A stretch of 60,642 nucleotides of DNA from a virus (IMGVR_UViG_2721755676_000007); one strand, 5' to 3'. Counted from the first letter of the stretch, positions 50,957 to 59,358 are shown. Program-made: numbers and translations. The notes: generated from the sequence alone by a model not told the origin.

Positions 50957-51529
50957 TCATATTGCCCCCAGCATGGTGGTAACCATCGCCATCAATGGAC
51001 CAGCCAGATCAGGATCCACACGAAACATCGACACAATGCCTTCACTCATCTCCTTCAGTTTCTGGTGGCGTGGTGCGTTGAGAATGACCGCCTGTTTTGC
51101 CTCGCTGAGCTCCTTTTCCATTTCAACCAGTCGAGCCATGAAGCTATCCTGCTCAACCAGGTGGCCGCGATATTTCAGCGGTAGTACTGCCAGAATTGCT
51201 GGAGTCAGTTCACGCACGTTATTTCGGTATTTTTCAGAATCGAATTTGTTATCGAGAAAGCGGAACAGCTTCTGGCGTGCACGACTGACATCATCAGGAA
51301 AATCGATAGTGCCGCCGCCCTGTGCTCGATACTCATTCACAATGAGTGCGGCAACGACATCCTGATTATCTACAGCCGACCAGGCGCGGACGGCATCACG
51401 GATTTTTTCGTGGCCTGGCACCTGTTTTATTTGAGAACGATTTATCACCGCAGTCGGGATAAATCCGCTAGTCTGTTGGTATGTAATTGGTTGCATAATT
51501 GATTCCTTTAGTCTGAATTGACTGTTCAT
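50957..51529 (-). CDS. YdaT-like protein (occupies the cII position)
   Basis: 190-aa ORF between the Cro-like gene and O; family assignment from memory only. Confidence 0.45.
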   Translation of the reverse strand: MNSQFRLKESIMQPITYQQTSGFIPTAVINRSQIKQVPGHEKIRDAVRAWSAVDNQDVVAALIVNEYRAQGGGTIDFPDDVSRARQKLFRFLDNKFDSEKYRNNVRELTPAILAVLPLKYRGHLVEQDSFMARLVEMEKELSEAKQAVILNAPRHQKLKEMSEGIVSMFRVDPDLAGPLMAMVTTMLGAI

Positions 51530-51577
51530 CAGTCTGTTAAGTTGATTGCTTATTGTTAAAGAACGTGAAAAGGAAAT

Positions 51578-51808
51578 TTAAGCTGCATTCTTTTCGGTAT
51601 GTGGAAACAACTTCGGAAGATCCGGGCGAATCTGGTATGCCTTAACTACCCCGCCAGTAGCCGTAACAATGCTGCCGACATGTTCAGGGGATACCTTTGC
51701 TTTGTTGTGTAGCCACTTATAGACGGCCTGCTGTGAAACTTCGCAGGCATCGCCCAGTTTCTTTTGTGAACCGACGATATTGATCGCGGTTTTGATTGCT
51801 GGGTTCAT
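51578..51808 (-). CDS. cro: Cro-like HTH repressor (YdaS family)
   Basis: 76 aa with HTH (LGDACEVSQQAVYKWLHNKAKVSPEH), divergent from the CI-like gene. Confidence 0.75.
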   Translation of the reverse strand: MNPAIKTAINIVGSQKKLGDACEVSQQAVYKWLHNKAKVSPEHVGSIVTATGGVVKAYQIRPDLPKLFPHTEKNAA

Positions 51809-51912
51809 AACAACCTCCGTGGTTAACTTGAATTAAGATTAAAACCATGGTTGTTTTTAGTCAACAACCATTTTCGTTTGATGAAATAAAACCTTGGTTG
51901 TACATTTGGTCT
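51809..51912. promoter_or_regulatory. Divergent immunity promoter/operator region (OR-like)
   Basis: Palindromes AACCATGGTT (51843-51852) and AACCTTGGTT (51891-51900) plus CAACAACCAT half-sites between divergent cro and cI starts. Confidence 0.55.
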
Positions 51913-52602
51913 ATGAAAACAACACTCTCAGAAAGACTTAAAGAAGCCAGATTAGCGCGAGGCCTTACACAAAAGGCGCTTGGGGATATGGTCGGGGTTA
52001 GCCAGGCTGCCATTCAGAAAATCGAAACAGGGAAAGCTAACCAAACAACTAAAATCGTGGAGATCGCAAACGCTTTAGGTGTGCGCGCAGAATGGTTATC
52101 TTCTGGCGTTGGAAATATGTCAGACAGTACCGTGCAACCAATACAATCAGCTGTCAGCCATTCAAAATACTTCAAGATTGACGTTCTTGATATAGAAGTC
52201 AGTGCCGGACCGGGTGTCATCAACCGTGAGTTTGTGGAAGTTCTACGCTCGGTTGAGTACTCGTTTGACGATGCTCGTCACATGTTCGATGGCAGGAAGG
52301 CGGAAAATATCCGCATCATTAACGTGCGCGGTGACAGCATGTCAGGGACGATCGAACCAGGTGACCTGCTGTTCGTTGATATCACTGTTAAATCTTTCGA
52401 CGGTGATGGCATCTATGCGTTTCTGTACGACGACACTGCCCATGTAAAACGTCTTCAAATGATGAAGGATAAGCTGCTGGTTATCTCTGATAACAAGAGC
52501 TACTCGCCGTGGGACCCGATCGAGAAAGACGAGATGAACCGGGTGTTCATATTCGGTAAGGTCATTGGAAGCATGCCGCAGACGTACAGGAAGCATGGTT
52601 AA
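51913..52602 (+). CDS. cI: CI-like repressor (HTH_XRE plus S24 LexA-type autoprotease domain)
   Basis: 229 aa from MKTTLSERLKEARLARGLTQKALGDMVGVSQAAIQKIE; C-terminal GDSM Ser and conserved Lys. Confidence 0.85.
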   Translation: MKTTLSERLKEARLARGLTQKALGDMVGVSQAAIQKIETGKANQTTKIVEIANALGVRAEWLSSGVGNMSDSTVQPIQSAVSHSKYFKIDVLDIEVSAGPGVINREFVEVLRSVEYSFDDARHMFDGRKAENIRIINVRGDSMSGTIEPGDLLFVDITVKSFDGDGIYAFLYDDTAHVKRLQMMKDKLLVISDNKSYSPWDPIEKDEMNRVFIFGKVIGSMPQTYRKHG

Positions 52603-52831
52603 TTTATCTACGACTTAAGGGAGCGAAGGTTAAGGTTTATACCACTCGGATTAGATATTGCACTAAATTCTCTATAAGAACGCCAAATCTGTTTGCATAT
52701 TTCAGTAAATATTCTCGTTGTTAGCTGAGATTTGTTGCTACTGTCAGCAAAATGTCCCCCTATCTCGTAGCGGTTTTTATTTCGAATCATTATGTTAAGA
52801 TGTTTCTGATTATAATGAATGGAAACATAAA

Positions 52832-53212
52832 ATGAGAAAAATCCTAATCGCTGCCATGATGGCATCTCTATTGGCTGGGTGTGCTTCTTCAGGCAACCAG
52901 CAACTCAAAAATGAAACTGAAATTAGTGTCCAGTCTAAACTTCAGGAAGGTAAAACAACCAAGAATGAGGTTAAATCTTACTTTGGTTCTCCTGATGCTG
53001 TTTCATATACTGACAGTGGAAACGAGATCTGGAAGTACGCCTTTGCAAAAGTAAAAGTTAATGGCACCACTTTTATTCCATTCTATGGATTATTCCATAA
53101 TGGAACGAACGGTACGAAAAAAGAACTTACTATTCTTTTTAACGATGACACGATTAAGAAATACACAATGTCAGAAACCCAAATAAACTCGAAATCAGGT
53201 TGGGCTGACTGA
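52832..53212 (+). CDS. Lipoprotein (126 aa) downstream of cI, at the position of lambda rexAB
   Basis: Signal peptide with lipobox LLAGC; followed by an intrinsic terminator. Confidence 0.65.
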   Translation: MRKILIAAMMASLLAGCASSGNQQLKNETEISVQSKLQEGKTTKNEVKSYFGSPDAVSYTDSGNEIWKYAFAKVKVNGTTFIPFYGLFHNGTNGTKKELTILFNDDTIKKYTMSETQINSKSGWAD

Positions 53213-53220
53213 TAATCATA

Positions 53221-53247
53221 CCCGGCAACCGCGCCGGGTTTTCTTTT
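53221..53247 (+). terminator. Intrinsic terminator after the cI-lipoprotein unit
   Basis: CCCGGC-aaccgc-GCCGGG followed by TTTTCTTTT. Confidence 0.65.
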
Positions 53248-53372
53248 CCTCCCCCTCATAACTCATACCGTCCAAAAAACCACCACACCTCACTTCAGTT
53301 ATCGCTATGCGATGCAAGTCACAAAATAAATCCATCCTAAATACAACCAGTTATATTTAAAACAACCGACAA

Positions 53373-53415
53373 AACAACTTTTGTTGTTGACGATAAAACA
53401 ACTATAGTTTTAAAT
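53373..53415 (+). promoter_or_regulatory. Candidate pL-type promoter with overlapping operator palindrome
   Basis: AACAAC-tttt-GTTGTT palindrome (53373-53388); -35 TTGACG (53387-53392), 17-bp spacer, -10 TTAAAT (53410-53415). Confidence 0.4.
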
Positions 53416-53488
53416 AAATTCATCGCAACGACACAACGATACGGTAACCACCTGTTTCACCGTTGCGATGACCGCTTAGATCCGCAGT

Positions 53489-53899
53489 TTGAATTTCAGC
53501 AGGCTTCGGGGAGTGCGAGGGGTGAAACGGACGCGTGAACGTCGGTGTGACCAGCTGAAATCAACACAACACTTTATACCTCAGTCGCTTCAACGAGGCG
53601 GCTTAGTTATGACAACCGGCGGCCATCCACCGCCTGAATACGCGCAGAAGTCTCTATATGTTCAGCAGCCCAGCTTACGGGCAGGAGTTTTTATGGTTCA
53701 TCAACATTACGGAACGCAGACCGTTAATCGCGGCGCGGTCATGCCAGGAATGCTGGTCAAACACAAAGATGGTACCTGGACTGCATCAGCTAATTTACGC
53801 GGGCGGCTTTATCTGCATCGCGGCATCGAGCGCACTTATACCCGTGATTTGCTCGTAGAAGTTTTTCTCGACGGACGCGGTAACGGCCTGAATCACTAA
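53489..53899 (+). CDS. Hypothetical protein with N-terminal arginine-rich motif (possible N-type antiterminator); reading frame uncertain
   Basis: KRTRERR near the N-terminus resembles the N-family ARM; remainder has no N-like features. Confidence 0.3.
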   Translation: MNFSRLRGVRGVKRTRERRCDQLKSTQHFIPQSLQRGGLVMTTGGHPPPEYAQKSLYVQQPSLRAGVFMVHQHYGTQTVNRGAVMPGMLVKHKDGTWTASANLRGRLYLHRGIERTYTRDLLVEVFLDGRGNGLNH

Positions 53900-53975
53900 C
53901 CCCCCTTTCCTGTTTTCCTAATCAGCCTGGCATTTCGCGGGCGATATTTTCACAGCCATTTTCAGGAGTTCAGCC

Positions 53976-54272
53976 ATGAACGCTTATTACATTCAGGATC
54001 GTCTTGAGGCTCAGAGCTGGGCGCGTCACTACCAGCAGATCGCCCGTGAAGAGAAAGAGGCAGAACTGGCAGACGACATGGAAAAAGGCCTGCCCCAGCA
54101 TTTGTTTGAATCGCTCTGCATCGATCATTTACAACGCTGCGGGGCCAGCAAAAAAGCCATTACCCGTGCATTTGATGACGATGTTGAGTTTCAGGAGCGC
54201 ATGGCAGAACACATCCGGTACATGGTTGAAACCATTGCTCACCATCAGGTTGATATTGATTCAGAGGTATAA
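53976..54272 (+). CDS. gam: Host-nuclease (RecBCD) inhibitor Gam, short form
   Basis: 98-aa [51 protein letters not shown], lambda GamS. Confidence 0.92.
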
Positions 54273-54277
54273 AACGG

Positions 54278-55063
54278 ATGAGTACAGCACTCGCAACGCT
54301 GGCTGGGAAGCTGGCTGAACGTGTCGGCATGGATTCTGTCGACCCACAGGAACTGATCACCACTCTTCGCCAGACGGCATTTAAAGGTGATGCCAGCGAT
54401 GCGCAGTTCATCGCATTGTTGATCGTCGCCAACCAGTACGGCCTTAATCCGTGGACGAAAGAAATTTACGCCTTCCCTGACAAGCAGAACGGCATCGTTC
54501 CGGTGGTGGGCGTTGATGGCTGGTCCCGCATCATCAATGAAAACCAGCAGTTTGATGGCATGGACTTTGAGCAGGACAATGAATCCTGCACATGCCGGAT
54601 TTACCGCAAGGACCGTAATCATCCGATCTGCGTTACCGAGTGGATGGATGAATGCCGCCGCGAACCATTCAAAACCCGTGAAGGCAGAGAAATCACGGGG
54701 CCGTGGCAGTCGCATCCTAAACGGATGTTACGGCATAAAGCCATGATTCAGTGTGCCCGTCTCGCCTTCGGATTTGCGGGTATCTATGACAAGGATGAAG
54801 CCGAGCGCATTGTCGAAAATACCGCATACACTGCAGAACGTCAGCCGGAACGCGACATCACTCCGGTTAACGATGAAACCATGCAGGAGATTAACACTCT
54901 GCTGATTGCCCTGGACAAAACATGGGATGACGACTTATTGCCGCTCTGTTCCCAGATATTTCGCCGCGACATTCGCGCATCGTCAGAACTGACACAGGCC
55001 GAAGCAGTGAAAGCTCTTGGATTCCTGAAACAGAAAGCCACTGAGCAGAAGGTGGCAGCATGA
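54278..55063 (+). CDS. bet: Recombination protein Bet (Red beta)
   Basis: 261-aa [41 protein letters not shown]. Confidence 0.95.
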
Positions 55064-55740
55064 CACCGGACATTATCCTGCAGCGTACCGGGATCGACGT
55101 GAGAGCTGTCGAACAGGGGGATGATGCATGGCACAAATTACGGCTCGGCGTCATCACCGCTTCAGAAGTTCACAACGTGATAGCAAAGCCCCGCTCAGGA
55201 AAGAAGTGGCCTGACATGAAAATGTCCTACTTCCACACCCTGCTGGCTGAGGTTTGCACCGGTGTGGCTCCGGAAGTTAATGCTAAGGCACTGGCCTGGG
55301 GAAAACAGTACGAGAACGACGCCAGAGCCCTGTTTGAGTTTACTTCCGGCGTGAATGTTACTGAATCCCCGATCATCTATCGCGACGAAAGTATGCGCAC
55401 CGCCTGCTCTCCCGATGGTTTATGCAGTGACGGTAACGGCCTTGAACTGAAATGCCCGTTTACCTCCCGGGATTTCATGAAATTCCGGCTCGGTGGTTTC
55501 GAGGCCATAAAGTCGGCTTACATGGCCCAGGTGCAGTACAGCATGTGGGTGACTCGAAAAGATGCCTGGTACTTTGCCAACTATGACCCGCGCATGAAGC
55601 GTGAAGGCCTGCATTATGTCGTGATTGAGCGGAATGAAAAGTACATGGCGAGTTTTGACGAGATGGTGCCGGAGTTCATCGAAAAAATGGACGAGGCACT
55701 GGCTGAAATTGGTTTTGTATTTGGGGAGCAATGGCGATGA
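55060..55740 (+). CDS. exo: Exonuclease Exo (Red alpha)
   Basis: 226-aa [43 protein letters not shown]. Confidence 0.95.
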
Positions 55741-55919
55741 CGCATCCTCACGATAATATCCGGGTAGGCGCGATCACTTTCGTCTACTCCATTACAAAGC
55801 GAGGCTGGGTATTTCCCGGCCTTTCTGTTATCAGAAATCCCCTGAAAGCACAGCGGCTGGCTGAGGAGATAAATAATAAACGGGGAGCTGTATGCACAAA
55901 GCATCTCCCGTTGAGTTAA
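55731..55919 (+). CDS. Small hypothetical protein (62 aa), early-left accessory ORF
   Basis: Overlaps exo stop; chained by overlaps to the next ORFs. Confidence 0.5.
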
Positions 55920-56083
55920 GAACGAGCATTGAGATGGCACATAGCCTCGCTCAAATTGGAGTCAGGTTTGTGCCAATACCAGTAGAAACAGACGAAGAAT
56001 TTCATACGTTAGCCGCATCCCTTTCACAAAAGCTGGAAATGATGGTGGCGAAAGCAGAAGCAGATGAGAGAGACCAGGTATGA
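55892..56083 (+). CDS. Small hypothetical protein (63 aa)
   Basis: Acidic small ORF, ATGA-coupled to the following 27-codon ORF. Confidence 0.5.
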   Translation: MHKASPVELRTSIEMAHSLAQIGVRFVPIPVETDEEFHTLAASLSQKLEMMVAKAEADERDQV

Positions 56084-56159
56084 CAACCACTGAATGCATT
56101 TTTCTGGCAGCGGGCTTCATATTCTGTGTGCTTATGCTTGCCGACATGGGGCTTGTTCA

Positions 56160-56375
56160 ATGACACCTCAGCAAGAAAACGCCCTTCGCAGCATTGCCCG
56201 TCAGGCTAATTCTGAAATCAAAAAAGCCAGACAGCAGTTTCCGGATAAAAACGTCGATGACATTTGCCGTAGCGTACTAAAGAAGCACCGCGAAACGGTA
56301 ACACTGATGGGATTCACACCGACTCATTTAAGCCTGGCGATCGGCATGTTGAACGGCGTCTTTAAGGAACGGTGA
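56160..56375 (+). CDS. Small hypothetical protein (71 aa from MTPQQENALRSIARQ)
   Basis: ATG overlaps the stop of a 27-codon hydrophobic ORF (56080-56163); ORF track lists a longer version from 56094. Confidence 0.5.
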   Translation: MTPQQENALRSIARQANSEIKKARQQFPDKNVDDICRSVLKKHRETVTLMGFTPTHLSLAIGMLNGVFKER

Positions 56376-56473
56376 ACATGAAAAGCAAAATCATCAGGGA
56401 GCTACAGGCTCCTTTTTTATTATTCGCATTCACCCTCAAGCGTATTAACCAACAATTCAGGGATTAATGAAAG

Positions 56474-56695
56474 ATGGCAGACATAATTGATTCAGCATCA
56501 GAAATTGAAGAATTACAGCGCAACACAGCAATAAAAATGCGCCGCCTGAACCACCAGGCTATATCTGCCACTCATTGTTGTGAGTGTGGCGATCCGATAG
56601 ATGAACGAAGACGACTGGCCGTTCAGGGTTGTCGGACTTGTGCCAGTTGCCAGCAAGATCTGGAGCTTATCAGTAAACAGAGAGGTTCGAAGTGA
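56474..56695 (+). CDS. TraR/DksA-family C4 zinc-finger protein
   Basis: 73 aa with CCECGDPIDERRR...CRTCASCQ four-Cys motif. Confidence 0.7.
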   Translation: MADIIDSASEIEELQRNTAIKMRRLNHQAISATHCCECGDPIDERRRLAVQGCRTCASCQQDLELISKQRGSK

Positions 56696-56905
56696 GCGAA
56701 ATTAACTAGAAGCCAAAGATAAAATCATCGCTGAGCAGGAGAAAATCGCTAACGGAGAAAAGACAGTAAGTCAGTATATGAAAACCGCATGATATCATCA
56801 GATAAAAATCGGTCGTAAAGCGAAATATTAATACCAGAACAAACGAGTCGAGGTAAATTATATTACCTCGATAAATTAACTAAAACTTGCCCGCTATATA
56901 CTATA

Positions 56906-57508
56906 TCATTCAGTATCATCACGCGCGGTCTGTGCATATGTCACTACCGCACCTAATATATTAATTTTCTTTTCAACATAGATAATATTATCGTACTCAT
57001 AATTGCCATACGGATAGCAAATGCGAATATTCTCATGTAGATCGGGGTCATCCACCTCAGCTCCAGAACAACTTTTTGAACTACCGGAAGTATACCGATA
57101 CGGTGCAACATAAGACGATGTCTCTCCAGGCAAAAAATAAGTTAGTGTCGTAAGGGGTATAATCAGAAAAAATCCAGCAAATATGCACATCCCTGCATAA
57201 ACCTTAAGGTATGCTGACAGACTCTTCCAGCCGCTTTGTTTTACTATCCCCTTCTTAACCCAAAACAGAGATAACAGAAAAGCTATTCCCATGCTAAACA
57301 GAATGTAATAGTGGGATATACTCTGATTAAGAAACGTGACCCTGTAGATATCTGCCCGCCACCAGAAGAAAAGGAAAATAAAGATCAGCCCTGAAACTGT
57401 CATGCAAATCAAATAAGGATACGAATCTTTTTTCATGTTTAGCGCCCATAAAATTTTTCCTGACCCGGACAAATTTACCATCCATTTTTTGCGCAGAAAA
57501 TAGCTCAT
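56906..57508 (-). CDS. Membrane protein (200 aa, about four TM helices plus Cys-containing C-terminal domain), AT-rich, antisense to the early-left operon
   Basis: Hydrophobic segments LICMTVSGLIFIFLFFWW, YYILFSMGIAFLLSLFWV, AGMCIFAGFFLIIPLTTLTYFL; local GC clearly below neighbours. Confidence 0.55.
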   Translation of the reverse strand: MSYFLRKKWMVNLSGSGKILWALNMKKDSYPYLICMTVSGLIFIFLFFWWRADIYRVTFLNQSISHYYILFSMGIAFLLSLFWVKKGIVKQSGWKSLSAYLKVYAGMCIFAGFFLIIPLTTLTYFLPGETSSYVAPYRYTSGSSKSCSGAEVDDPDLHENIRICYPYGNYEYDNIIYVEKKINILGAVVTYAQTARDDTE

Positions 57509-57909
57509 TACTTACTGCACAATAATACACAAAATTGCGTAAATTTTTTGCATGGATTTTAGCTCTTTCAGCCGACATTTAAGGGGTAAATAGCATTTCC
57601 TAAAAGCAACTGCACCAACCCAACAGAATGGGCTACCGCTTACGTTGAGAGCAAAAAAGTGTATAGCAGCAATGAACAGCATCCTCGCACTGACGAGGAT
57701 TTCTTTTATCTGAACTCGCTACGGCGGGTTTTGTTTTATGGAGATGATAAATGCACTTCCGAGTCACAGGTGAATGGAATGGAGAACCATTCAACAGAGT
57801 TATCGAAGCCGAGAACATCAGCGACTGCTATGACCACTGGATGCTGTGGGCGCAGATAGCACATGCAGACGTAACCAATATTCGAATTGAAGAACTGAAA
57901 GAACACCAA

Positions 57910-57932
57910 GCCGCCTGATGGCGGTTTTTTCT
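57910..57932 (+). terminator. Intrinsic terminator upstream of xis
   Basis: GCCGCC-tgat-GGCGG followed by TTTTTTCT. Confidence 0.55.
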
Positions 57933-57957
57933 TGCGTGTAATTGCGGAGACTTTGCG

Positions 57958-58176
57958 ATGTACTTGACACTTCAGGAGTGGAACGCACGCCAGCGACGCC
58001 CAAGAAGCCTTGAAACAGTTCGTCGATGGGTACGCGAGTGCAGGATATTCCCTCCTCCGGTTAAGGATGGAAGAGAGTATCTGTTCCACGAATCAGCGGT
58101 AAAGGTTGACTTAAATCGACCAGTAACAGGTAGCCTTTTGAAGAGGATCAGAAATGGGAAGAAGGCGAAGTCATGA
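57958..58176 (+). CDS. xis: Excisionase Xis
   Basis: 72-aa ORF MYLTLQEWNARQRRPRSLETVRRWVRECRIFPPPVKDGREY matching lambda Xis. Confidence 0.95.
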   Translation: MYLTLQEWNARQRRPRSLETVRRWVRECRIFPPPVKDGREYLFHESAVKVDLNRPVTGSLLKRIRNGKKAKS

Positions 58177-59224
58177 GCGCCGGGATTTACCCCCTAACCT
58201 TTATATAAGAAACAATGGATATTACTGCTACAGGGACCCAAGGACGGGTAAAGAGTTTGGATTAGGCCGAGACAGGCGAATCGCAATCACTGAAGCTATA
58301 CAGGCCAACATTGAGTTATTTTCAGGACACAAACACAAGCCTCTGACAGCGAGAATCAACAGTGATAATTCCGTTACGTTACATTCATGGCTTGATCGCT
58401 ACGAAAAAATCCTGGCCAGCAGAGGAATCAAGCAGAAGACACTCATAAATTACATGAGCAAAATTAAAGCAATAAGGAGGGGTCTGCCTGATGCTCCACT
58501 TGAAGACATCACCACAAAAGAAATTGCGGCAATGCTCAATGGATACATAGACGAGGGCAAGGCGGCATCAGCCAAGTTAATCAGATCAACACTGAGCGAT
58601 GCATTCCGAGAGGCTATAGCTGAAGGCCATATAACAACAAACCCGGTCGCAGCCACTCGCGCTGCAAAATCAGAGGTAAGGAGATCAAGACTTACGGCTG
58701 ACGAATACCTGAAAATTTATCAAGCAGCAGAATCATCACCATGTTGGCTTAGACTTGCAATGGAACTGGCTGTTGTTACCGGGCAGCGAGTTGGTGATTT
58801 ATGCGAAATGAAGTGGTCTGATATCGTAGATGGATATCTTTATGTCGAGCAAAGCAAAACAGGCGTAAAAATTGCCATCCCAACAACATTGCATGTTGAT
58901 GCTCTCGGGATATCAATGAAGGAAACACTTGATAAATGCAAAAAGATTCTTGGCGGAGAAACCATAATTGCATCTACTCGTCGTGAACCGCTTTCATCCG
59001 GCACAGTATCAAGGTATTTTATGCGCGCACGAAAAGCATCAGGTCTCTCCTTCGAAGGGGATCCGCCAACCTTTCACGAGTTGCGCAGTTTGTCTGCAAG
59101 ACTCTATGAGAAGCAGATAAGCGATAAATTTGCTCAACATCTTCTCGGGCATAAGTCGGACACCATGGCATCACAGTATCGTGATGACAGAGGCAGGGAG
59201 TGGGACAAAATTGAAATCAAATAA
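58154..59224 (+). CDS. int: Lambda integrase Int
   Basis: 356-aa ORF MGRRRSHERRDLPPNLYIRNNGYYCYRDPRTGKEFGLGRD matching lambda Int. Confidence 0.95.
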   Translation: MGRRRSHERRDLPPNLYIRNNGYYCYRDPRTGKEFGLGRDRRIAITEAIQANIELFSGHKHKPLTARINSDNSVTLHSWLDRYEKILASRGIKQKTLINYMSKIKAIRRGLPDAPLEDITTKEIAAMLNGYIDEGKAASAKLIRSTLSDAFREAIAEGHITTNPVAATRAAKSEVRRSRLTADEYLKIYQAAESSPCWLRLAMELAVVTGQRVGDLCEMKWSDIVDGYLYVEQSKTGVKIAIPTTLHVDALGISMKETLDKCKKILGGETIIASTRREPLSSGTVSRYFMRARKASGLSFEGDPPTFHELRSLSARLYEKQISDKFAQHLLGHKSDTMASQYRDDRGREWDKIEIK

Positions 59225-59312
59225 TGATTTTATTTTGACTGATAGTGACCTGTTCGTTGCAACAAATTGATAAGCAATGCTTTTTTATAATGCCAACTTA
59301 GTATAAAAAAGC
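59225..59312. other. Prophage-host junction attL (lambda P' arm plus 15-bp core TTAGTATAAAAAAGC at 59298-59312)
   Basis: P' arm ...GTTGCAACAAATTGATAAGCAATGCTTTTTTATAATGCCAAC then core, then host sequence AGGCTTCA as at E. coli attB. Confidence 0.9.
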
Positions 59313-59358
59313 AGGCTTCAACGGATTCATTTTTCTATTTCATAGCCCGGAGCAACCT

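Follow-up and report, generated by a model that had tools for sequence, protein, structure and literature searches.

The window, by which we mean the whole 60,642-nucleotide stretch of IMGVR_UViG_2721755676_000007, carries a lambda-like prophage of E. coli that has inserted beside ybhC. From 47587 to 60642 it is 99.97% identical to E. coli NZ_AP022215, and the RefSeq annotation of that genome is therefore valid for the region studied here. We rejected colinearity between the two over the whole window, because it fails to the left of 47587 and the window carries two insertion sequences (42719 to 44046 and 46256 to 47586), neither of which is present in the otherwise colinear NZ_AP022215. The first is an IS10 insertion, with RNA-OUT at 42763 to 42832, a 402-aa transposase, and a 9-bp target duplication. 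The other is a 1,331-bp IS2-like element. Together they flank the ybcK recombinase-emrE segment, which lies in the nin region of the pR operon, and therefore this copy of the prophage may be impaired for late expression.

The genes and sequence features around the studied region are collected in Table 1. As at lambda pL/OL, the region is on the left side of cI, separated from it by an accessory gene (a lipoprotein gene here, rexAB in lambda) and its terminator, and it leads into a kil-gam-bet-exo-xis-int operon in which gam, bet, and exo are homologues of the lambda genes. The original prediction had placed it at pL, in the N position, and the gene family assignments on either side bear this out. 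The block shared with heteroimmune relatives has its left edge at 53220/53221, where similarity to about 60 related loci begins. There are also clear differences from lambda. The operators are of the AACAAC-N4-GTTGTT type, the analogues of Cro and cII are YdaS- and YdaT-like, and the window is without N, nutL, cIII, ea10, and ral. In addition, kil is the first gene of the left operon here, and it belongs to the Rac/phi80 Kil family, not to that of lambda Kil. The gam product (53976 to 54272) is the 98-aa short form only, which we take to be equivalent to lambda GamS. The spacer between kil and gam stands in place of the N-terminal 40 codons of lambda gam.

Table 1. Features of the early-left region and its surroundings, with the diversity (pi) of leader segments and the positions of the RNA module in other loci
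Feature	Coordinates	Strand	Remarks
O-like replication gene	49941-50960	-	family assignment
YdaT-like "cII"	50957-51496	-	family assignment
rrn-type boxA, nutR position	51553-51565	-	CGTTCTTTAACAA, 12 nt past cro stop
YdaS/Cro-like gene (cro)	51578-51808	-	family assignment
S24-family CI repressor	51913-52602	+	family assignment
BamE-like lipoprotein gene	52832-53212	+	LAGC lipobox
Intrinsic terminator of lipoprotein gene	53220-53247	+	7-bp stem 53220-53239, 6 GC pairs, then T-run TTTCTTTT
Studied region (pL/OL, leader, kil)	53249-53899	+	
OL cluster	53343-53412	.	OL1 53397-53412 AACAACTATAGTTTTA; OL2 53373-53388 AACAACTTTTGTTGTT; weaker OL3 about 53343-53358 TACAACCAGTTATATT
Candidate pL promoter	53387-53415	+	-35 TTGACG 53387-53392; 17-bp spacer; -10 TTAAAT 53410-53415
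Hairpin 1, 5'-terminal (predicted)	53421-53470	+	lower stem 10 bp, CATCGCAAC / GTTGCGATG
Hairpin 2, branched (predicted)	53487-53567	+	closed by TTGAATTTCAGC / GCTGAAATCAA
Spurious 5' extension of ORF, KRTRERR-bearing	53489-53692	+	non-coding leader, 68 codons
Post-terminator RNA module, about 70 nt	53572-53640	+	(U)UUCAUACC, hairpin 3, UUAGUU, AUG, ACAACC, hairpin 4
Hairpin 3	53583-53603	+	9 bp, covariation
Conserved AUG	53609	+	in all 8 module instances
Hairpin 4	53618-53634	+	GGCGG-CCAUCCA-CCGCC, invariant
kil	53683-53899	+	AGGAG 53683-53687, 5 nt before ATG 53693; 68 codons; stop 53897-53899
gam, bet, exo, orf60a/63/61 homologues, TraR-like gene, xis, int	from 53976	+	family assignment
ybhC	right end of window	+	
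Diversity, leader	53472-53572		pi 0.033
Diversity, leader	53573-53636		pi 0.021
Diversity, leader	53637-53692		pi 0.008
Diversity, kil, gam, bet			pi about 0.05 at third codon positions
Module in L003	3000-3068		
Module in L224	897-965		
Module in L098	4147-4211		
Module in L225	1364-1432		
Module in L229	700-768		
Module in L230	700-764		
Module in L231	684-752		

An operator-like palindrome overlapping a promoter had been predicted at 53373 to 53415. We found that it is present (OL2, an exact palindrome at 53373 to 53388), that it is above chance, and that it recurs in the cI-cro interval. With up to two mismatches allowed, the palindrome is found 8 times in the 60.6 kb, where 2.95 occurrences are expected, and five of the eight fall in two clusters, one at OL (53373 and 53397) and one between cI and cro (51809, 51840, and 51863). 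The 16-bp consensus is wAmAAC-N4-GTTkTw, and OR sites lie at 51809, 51840, 51863, and 51887, the last of which is a 93% repeat of the site at 51840. OL3 also repeats an OR sequence. From this pattern, the S24-family CI is predicted to use such operators, two to three of them over pL and four in OR. The operator-like site at 51809 to 51824 (AACAACCTCCGTGGTT) is past the inferred start of pR and shares bases with GGAGG, the ribosome-binding site of cro; this suggests an extra layer of cro control.

The promoter that had been proposed to overlap the palindrome is also there, as TTGACG-17-TTAAAT. Its -10 matches the consensus at four of six positions, and a generic promoter scan gave no pL because of the T at position 2 of that hexamer. 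However, the two hexamers align column by column with TTGATA-17-TATTAT in relatives of the 4A7 type and with TTGACT-17-TATTGT in those of the L050 type. These relatives have other operators and the same leader downstream of the promoter. No other evidence supports the candidate pL as strongly as this positional homology to the near-consensus promoters that heteroimmune relatives carry. Its core, GTTGTTGACGATAAAACAACTATAGTTTTAAAT, mirrors the pR core on the opposite strand, GTTGTTGACTAAAAACAACCATGGTTTTAATC, with 89% complementarity over 19 nt. As in lambda, the repeated candidate repressor sites cover the -35 and the spacer of a sigma-70 promoter and are mirrored at OR/pR, between cI and cro. 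Transcription from pL would start at about 53422.

The original prediction had read a 136-aa ORF in the N position (TTG start, 53489 to 53899) as N-like, with KRTRERR (residues 13 to 19) resembling the arginine-rich motif of N proteins. Both the ORF and the motif are present, but the N-like reading does not hold. The ORF is a composite of kil and an open stretch of leader, and the real gene is the 68-aa Kil-family gene that starts at 53693. The 68-aa product matches the PHROGs family phrog_294, "Kil" (E = 1.3e-37, residues 1 to 68), and the NCBIfam family NF008465, "FtsZ inhibitor" (E = 1.8e-17, residues 1 to 68, profile positions 1 to 70 of 73). The alignment runs the whole length of both profiles, which stand for the FtsZ inhibitors Rac KilR and phi80 Kil, but the NF008465 score of 63 bits is below the curated subfamily cutoff of 92 bits. 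Both profiles start at residue 1 of the 68-aa form, and nothing matches outside the last 68 codons. RefSeq WP_000233576.1 uses the same start and the same 68-aa form. Orthologues of Kil in seven other genera are 79 to 87% identical, and the Kil homologues in nine other loci have the same Met start. Their N termini read MV(H/N)QHYGTQ or MIHQHYGTQ in Citrobacter, Kluyvera, Enterobacter, Silvania, Pseudocitrobacter, two metagenome bins, and HK225, and that of the window reads MVHQHYGTQ. According to the annotators of Perceval, the phi80 Kil is of the same family. We suggest, from the family annotation, that the product is a Kil/KilR-type FtsZ inhibitor and would inhibit division. Here kil is the first real gene of the left operon, before gam, bet, and exo.

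The N-terminal half of the 136-aa ORF is non-coding; it is only the C-terminal 68 codons that are a gene. For that half, this is an outcome that the original prediction had named as one that would refute it. The extension alone has no family in Pfam, NCBIfam, or PHROGs. Among 54 distinct relatives of the E. coli lineage, 17 have it cut, 12 by an in-frame stop that leaves 36 upstream codons and 5 by a 5-nt indel (an extra TCAAC). In one more (L020), a 1-nt insertion changes the frame upstream of KRTRERR. The extension has few variable sites for a comparison of diversity by codon position. Outside the lineage, the sequence upstream of kil is unrelated among the homologues, and in L009 and HK225 the frame is closed 4 to 5 codons upstream. 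As a protein feature, KRTRERR is no more than chance would give. Since the extension has no family, no similarity to N, and broken frames, we conclude that the motif is a conceptual translation of untranslated leader RNA, and its codons lie inside the predicted hairpin 2.

The search for N itself gave the same picture. BLASTP against lambda N and P22 gp24 found nothing relevant, and tblastn of the extension against 50,697 phage records (E ≤ 10) found no N gene; the N proteins of phages 21 and 82, with which a comparison had been proposed, were covered through this collection-wide search. Homologues of phi80 N, HK022 Nun, and the first left-operon ORFs of HK225 were not found in the window by tblastn. 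The other reading frames of the region hold only ORFs of 23 to 29 aa, and no better small N gene lies in them or elsewhere in the window. An annotated N is likewise absent from the colinear NZ_AP022215 RefSeq annotation and from the records of PhiR26_1, 4A7, and Perceval. What the ORF shares with N of the lambda/P22/21 type is only its position just downstream of pL and the short K/R-rich KRTRERR. In contrast to an N gene, it shows no similarity, its extension is not conserved, and no conserved, small, basic, arginine-rich gene comes first after pL.

We also looked for nut and put sites. The reported absence of a lambda-type boxB or nutL was confirmed. Rfam searches, run with gathering thresholds over the whole window and with E ≤ 10 over 50800 to 54100, gave nothing in the region (the sole gathering-level match in the window is the IS10 RNA-OUT, elsewhere), and no stem of at least 5 bp in the leader carries a GNRNA pentaloop. 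There is no boxA-like 13-mer with up to two mismatches in the leader of the window, nor in the 2.5 kb downstream of pL in any of 61 relatives of the same immunity. The leader thus lacks the boxA and boxB of a nut site, both of which accompany N in the lambda/P22/21 type; a boxA occurs here only past cro. For put, a covariance model was built from eight RNAs (HK022 putL and putR, HK639, phiEt88, CobraSix, S9-5, UPF_BP1, and PDP110P2) and run over 36000 to 60642 with filters off. Its best E value was 0.47, at unrelated positions. Local alignment of the leader with HK022 put gave background-level scores, and the invariant put motifs CGAACGGCGCG, GGCGGGUUCAGGA, and CGGCAAU are absent. We found no two-stem RNA of the conserved put sequence and structure downstream of pL and pR, and no putR-like second copy of the leader elsewhere in the window. 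The locus resembles HK022 and the putL-like RNA of HK639 in that there is no N and a structured RNA lies at or near the start of the pL transcript. In summary, neither an N/nut nor an HK022-type antitermination system is present on the left side.

About 270 nt between pL and kil are untranslated. Two hairpins are predicted in the first part of this leader, and both are plausible structures by modeling. Relatives of the L050 type keep about 5 bp of hairpin 1, and no hairpin 2 was found outside the 16 phages of the 4A7/Perceval type and their prophage relatives. In a 26-sequence alignment of low divergence, hairpins 1 and 2 have only wobble-compatible polymorphisms and no compensatory pair. The fold of the whole leader is marginally better than that of shuffled sequences (z = -1.66). 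Three unrelated operator sets are followed by this leader with conservation of at least 93%, counted from about 53420 (in one lineage from 53456) as far as kil. The leader is carried by 16 isolated phages of the 4A7/Perceval group (4A7, Lambda_4C10, Perceval, Turner, the PhiR series, and others), and of 5,426 complete E. coli genomes, 3,147 have a match to the leader block (query 53200 to 53980). Its diversity is lower than that at the third codon positions of the neighboring genes (Table 1).

At about 53556 to 53572, an unpaired C-rich stretch at the 3' edge of hairpin 2, the pentamer TCAAC occurs in two to three copies among close relatives, and AAATCAACA in the same stretch is similar to repeats that lie ahead of pL in phi80. 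By eye, the first leader bases look alike too (CATCGCAACGACACAACGA versus CATCGAAACGAAACATCGA), a likeness to phi80 that is not significant. We rejected homology of 53420 to 53572 to the phi80 nutL leader, because BLAST finds only the module that follows N.

This module, 53572 to 53640, is a conserved RNA element in the 3' half of the leader. It also occurs in HK225, Enterobacter ENT1/BHUENT and CobraSix, Salmonella S9-5, Klebsiella KO-TP1, HK639, and phi80. The order elsewhere is UUUCAUACC (with CAUACC in the motif), a 9-bp hairpin, UUAGUU, AUG, A(CAACC), and GGCGG-CCAUCCA-CCGCC. Most relatives of the lineage keep UUUCAUACC, and the window has CUUUAUACC. Hairpin 3 has compensatory changes in six of its nine pairs. 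Across the alignment 97% of its cells are paired, as against 37 to 57% in slid controls, and none of 500 shuffles reached the observed score. A covariance model of the module found it once in the window, at 88 bits, and did not find it in the early-left regions of lambda and P22. It has no family in Rfam 15.

In all seven other instances, the first intrinsic terminator that the left operon carries is followed at once by the module. Its place in phi80 is right behind gene N, within the region annotated as tL1, and in HK639 it overlaps in part an annotated terminator. The lineage of the window has no such terminator stem ahead of the module. Of the phi80 left operon, the boxA (TGCTTTTTAACAA), the nutL leader of about 400 nt, gene N, and the tL1 stem have no counterpart here. 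What the module matches in phi80 is the sequence straight after the terminator of the N gene.

The 3' arm of hairpin 3 always begins with a Shine-Dalgarno-like GAG(G), about 10 nt upstream of the AUG at 53609. Depending on the phage, the ORF from this AUG has between 20 and 117 aa, and in CobraSix it passes through hairpin 4 in a different frame. Because the peptide is not conserved, the constraint is on the RNA. The position of the GAG(G) ahead of a conserved AUG makes it most likely that the module would act on the gene that comes after tL1, at the level of translation initiation, coupling, or processing.

On the pR side, an rrn-type boxA, a sequence of the kind bound by NusB and NusE, lies in the transcript directly after cro, where the boxA of a lambdoid nutR sits. 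It matches the rrn boxA (UGCUCUUUAACAA) at 11 of 13 positions and is one of only two matches in the window with up to two mismatches. The same position reads CGCTCTTTAACAA in 79 of 80 IMG/VR relatives, a 12/13 match, and CGCTCTTTACCAA in the P22 nutR. It is of the GCUCUUUAACAA type and is proximal to the promoter of a long operon. It has no conserved boxB or boxC partner beside it, and there is none after the cro of the heteroimmune phage 4A7, which has the same left leader. A GACUG-AUGAA-CAGUC hairpin after this boxA was considered as a boxB and rejected, because it is absent in 76 of the 80 relatives. Nus factors bound to a boxA can either prevent or promote Rho termination, with promotion as in suhB (PMC12360218).

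Taken together, these results describe an ordinary pL/OL of the lambdoid kind whose ORF was mis-called, and its leader holds an uncharacterised RNA module supported by covariation. We consider it probable that it consists of a repressor-controlled early-left promoter, a structured untranslated leader, and kil, in a lambda-like prophage that has no N. In this scheme, CI operators overlap pL, and the transcript would start near 53422 at the foot of the 5' stem-loop, which probably protects the mRNA. Compared with left operons of the phi80 type, the segment with nutL, the first gene, and the tL1 stem would be missing, so that only the post-tL1 module is left. Since no terminator lies between pL and kil-gam-bet-exo (there is only a weak terminator-like site, at 53925 to 53942), transcription would reach these genes without a dedicated antiterminator. 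On pR, host Nus factors on the rrn-type boxA may provide N-independent resistance to Rho. Further down the left operon there are stronger terminator-like sites at 56396 to 56414 (followed by eight T, before the TraR-like gene), 57681 to 57731, and 57908 to 57927 (just before xis). Therefore, pL transcription to xis and int might still need some antitermination.

These downstream sites are one reason to ask whether the leader from 53420 to 53572, with hairpins 1 and 2 and possibly the module, could itself be a new cis-acting, put-like antiterminator RNA that modifies RNA polymerase without a phage protein, so that pL transcripts pass these sites and reach xis and int. Like putL, the leader starts where transcription starts. 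It is conserved both downstream of three operator sets and in viable phages without an annotated N, and its diversity is below the synonymous diversity. A put-like mechanism has been proposed by Casjens and colleagues for another N-less lambdoid phage (PMC12315714). However, neither sequence nor covariance model shows similarity to put, there is no second copy downstream of pR as there would be with putR, and hairpins 1 and 2 lack compensatory pairs, with hairpin 1 only partly kept in the L050 type. Moreover, the genes of the left operon are dispensable for lytic growth, so conservation of the leader need not mean antitermination. We consider such an antiterminator quite improbable. The broader proposal, that N-less phages of the 4A7/Perceval type carry an undescribed cis-acting RNA at the start of the pL transcript, made of hairpins 1 and 2 and/or the covarying module, is likewise a long shot.

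The leader might instead keep kil silent in the lysogen, so that leaky pL transcription yields no Kil, through Rho-dependent termination or through hairpins that mask the translation signals. Proteins of the Kil family are toxic, and silencing by Rho is known for toxic genes of prophages (reviewed in PMC12360218). The 270 untranslated nucleotides contain C-rich, G-poor stretches (CAAC repeats at 53426 to 53440 and 53558 to 53572), conservation is highest in the 56 nt just ahead of the ATG, and kil homologues in other genera follow leaders with large hairpins, as seen by eye. But most of the leader is predicted to be base paired, which disfavors Rho loading, and action of Rho on it is a proposal only. 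We rate this role as unlikely, although it is compatible with the favored reading and does not exclude it. In Citrobacter, Kluyvera, Enterobacter, and other genera (L007 to L013), kil lies directly behind a pL-like promoter, at about 100 to 250 nt. The leaders there begin with CATCG, and hairpins such as GACAAC...GTTGTC and GTGAGCTTCGCGGTGGTG...CACCACCAGCGAAGTTCAC can be seen by eye, which hints at a general leader-based control of kil across genera.

Finally, translation could begin upstream of the kil ATG, either at TTG 53489, which would fuse the arginine-rich segment to Kil in 136 aa, or at AUG 53609, which in the E. coli lineage shares the kil frame and could give a 96-aa Kil isoform. In the window and in 36 of the 54 distinct relatives the frame stays open over 71 codons, some phage annotators use the long form, and AUG 53609 has its GAG(G) 10 nt upstream. 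Yet we read no Shine-Dalgarno sequence ahead of the TTG, the extension is broken in 17 of the 54 relatives and has no homologue, and distant Kil proteins all start at MVHQ. The AUG 53609 peptide is not conserved, as described above. Use of either start is therefore highly improbable.

These results bear on annotation and on the biology of the group. Several phage records carry 136-aa, 125-aa, or 140-aa "Kil" or "hypothetical" calls, and such long calls should be trimmed to 68 aa and the N-like motif should not be propagated. The module at 53572 to 53640 may be a new RNA motif of left operons in lambdoid phages. If the 4A7/Perceval-type phages do carry a cis-acting RNA at the start of the pL transcript, it would replace N/nut or put, by making RNA polymerase resistant to termination or by another control of the whole left operon. 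The leader is carried by viable phages that have no N, nut, or put.
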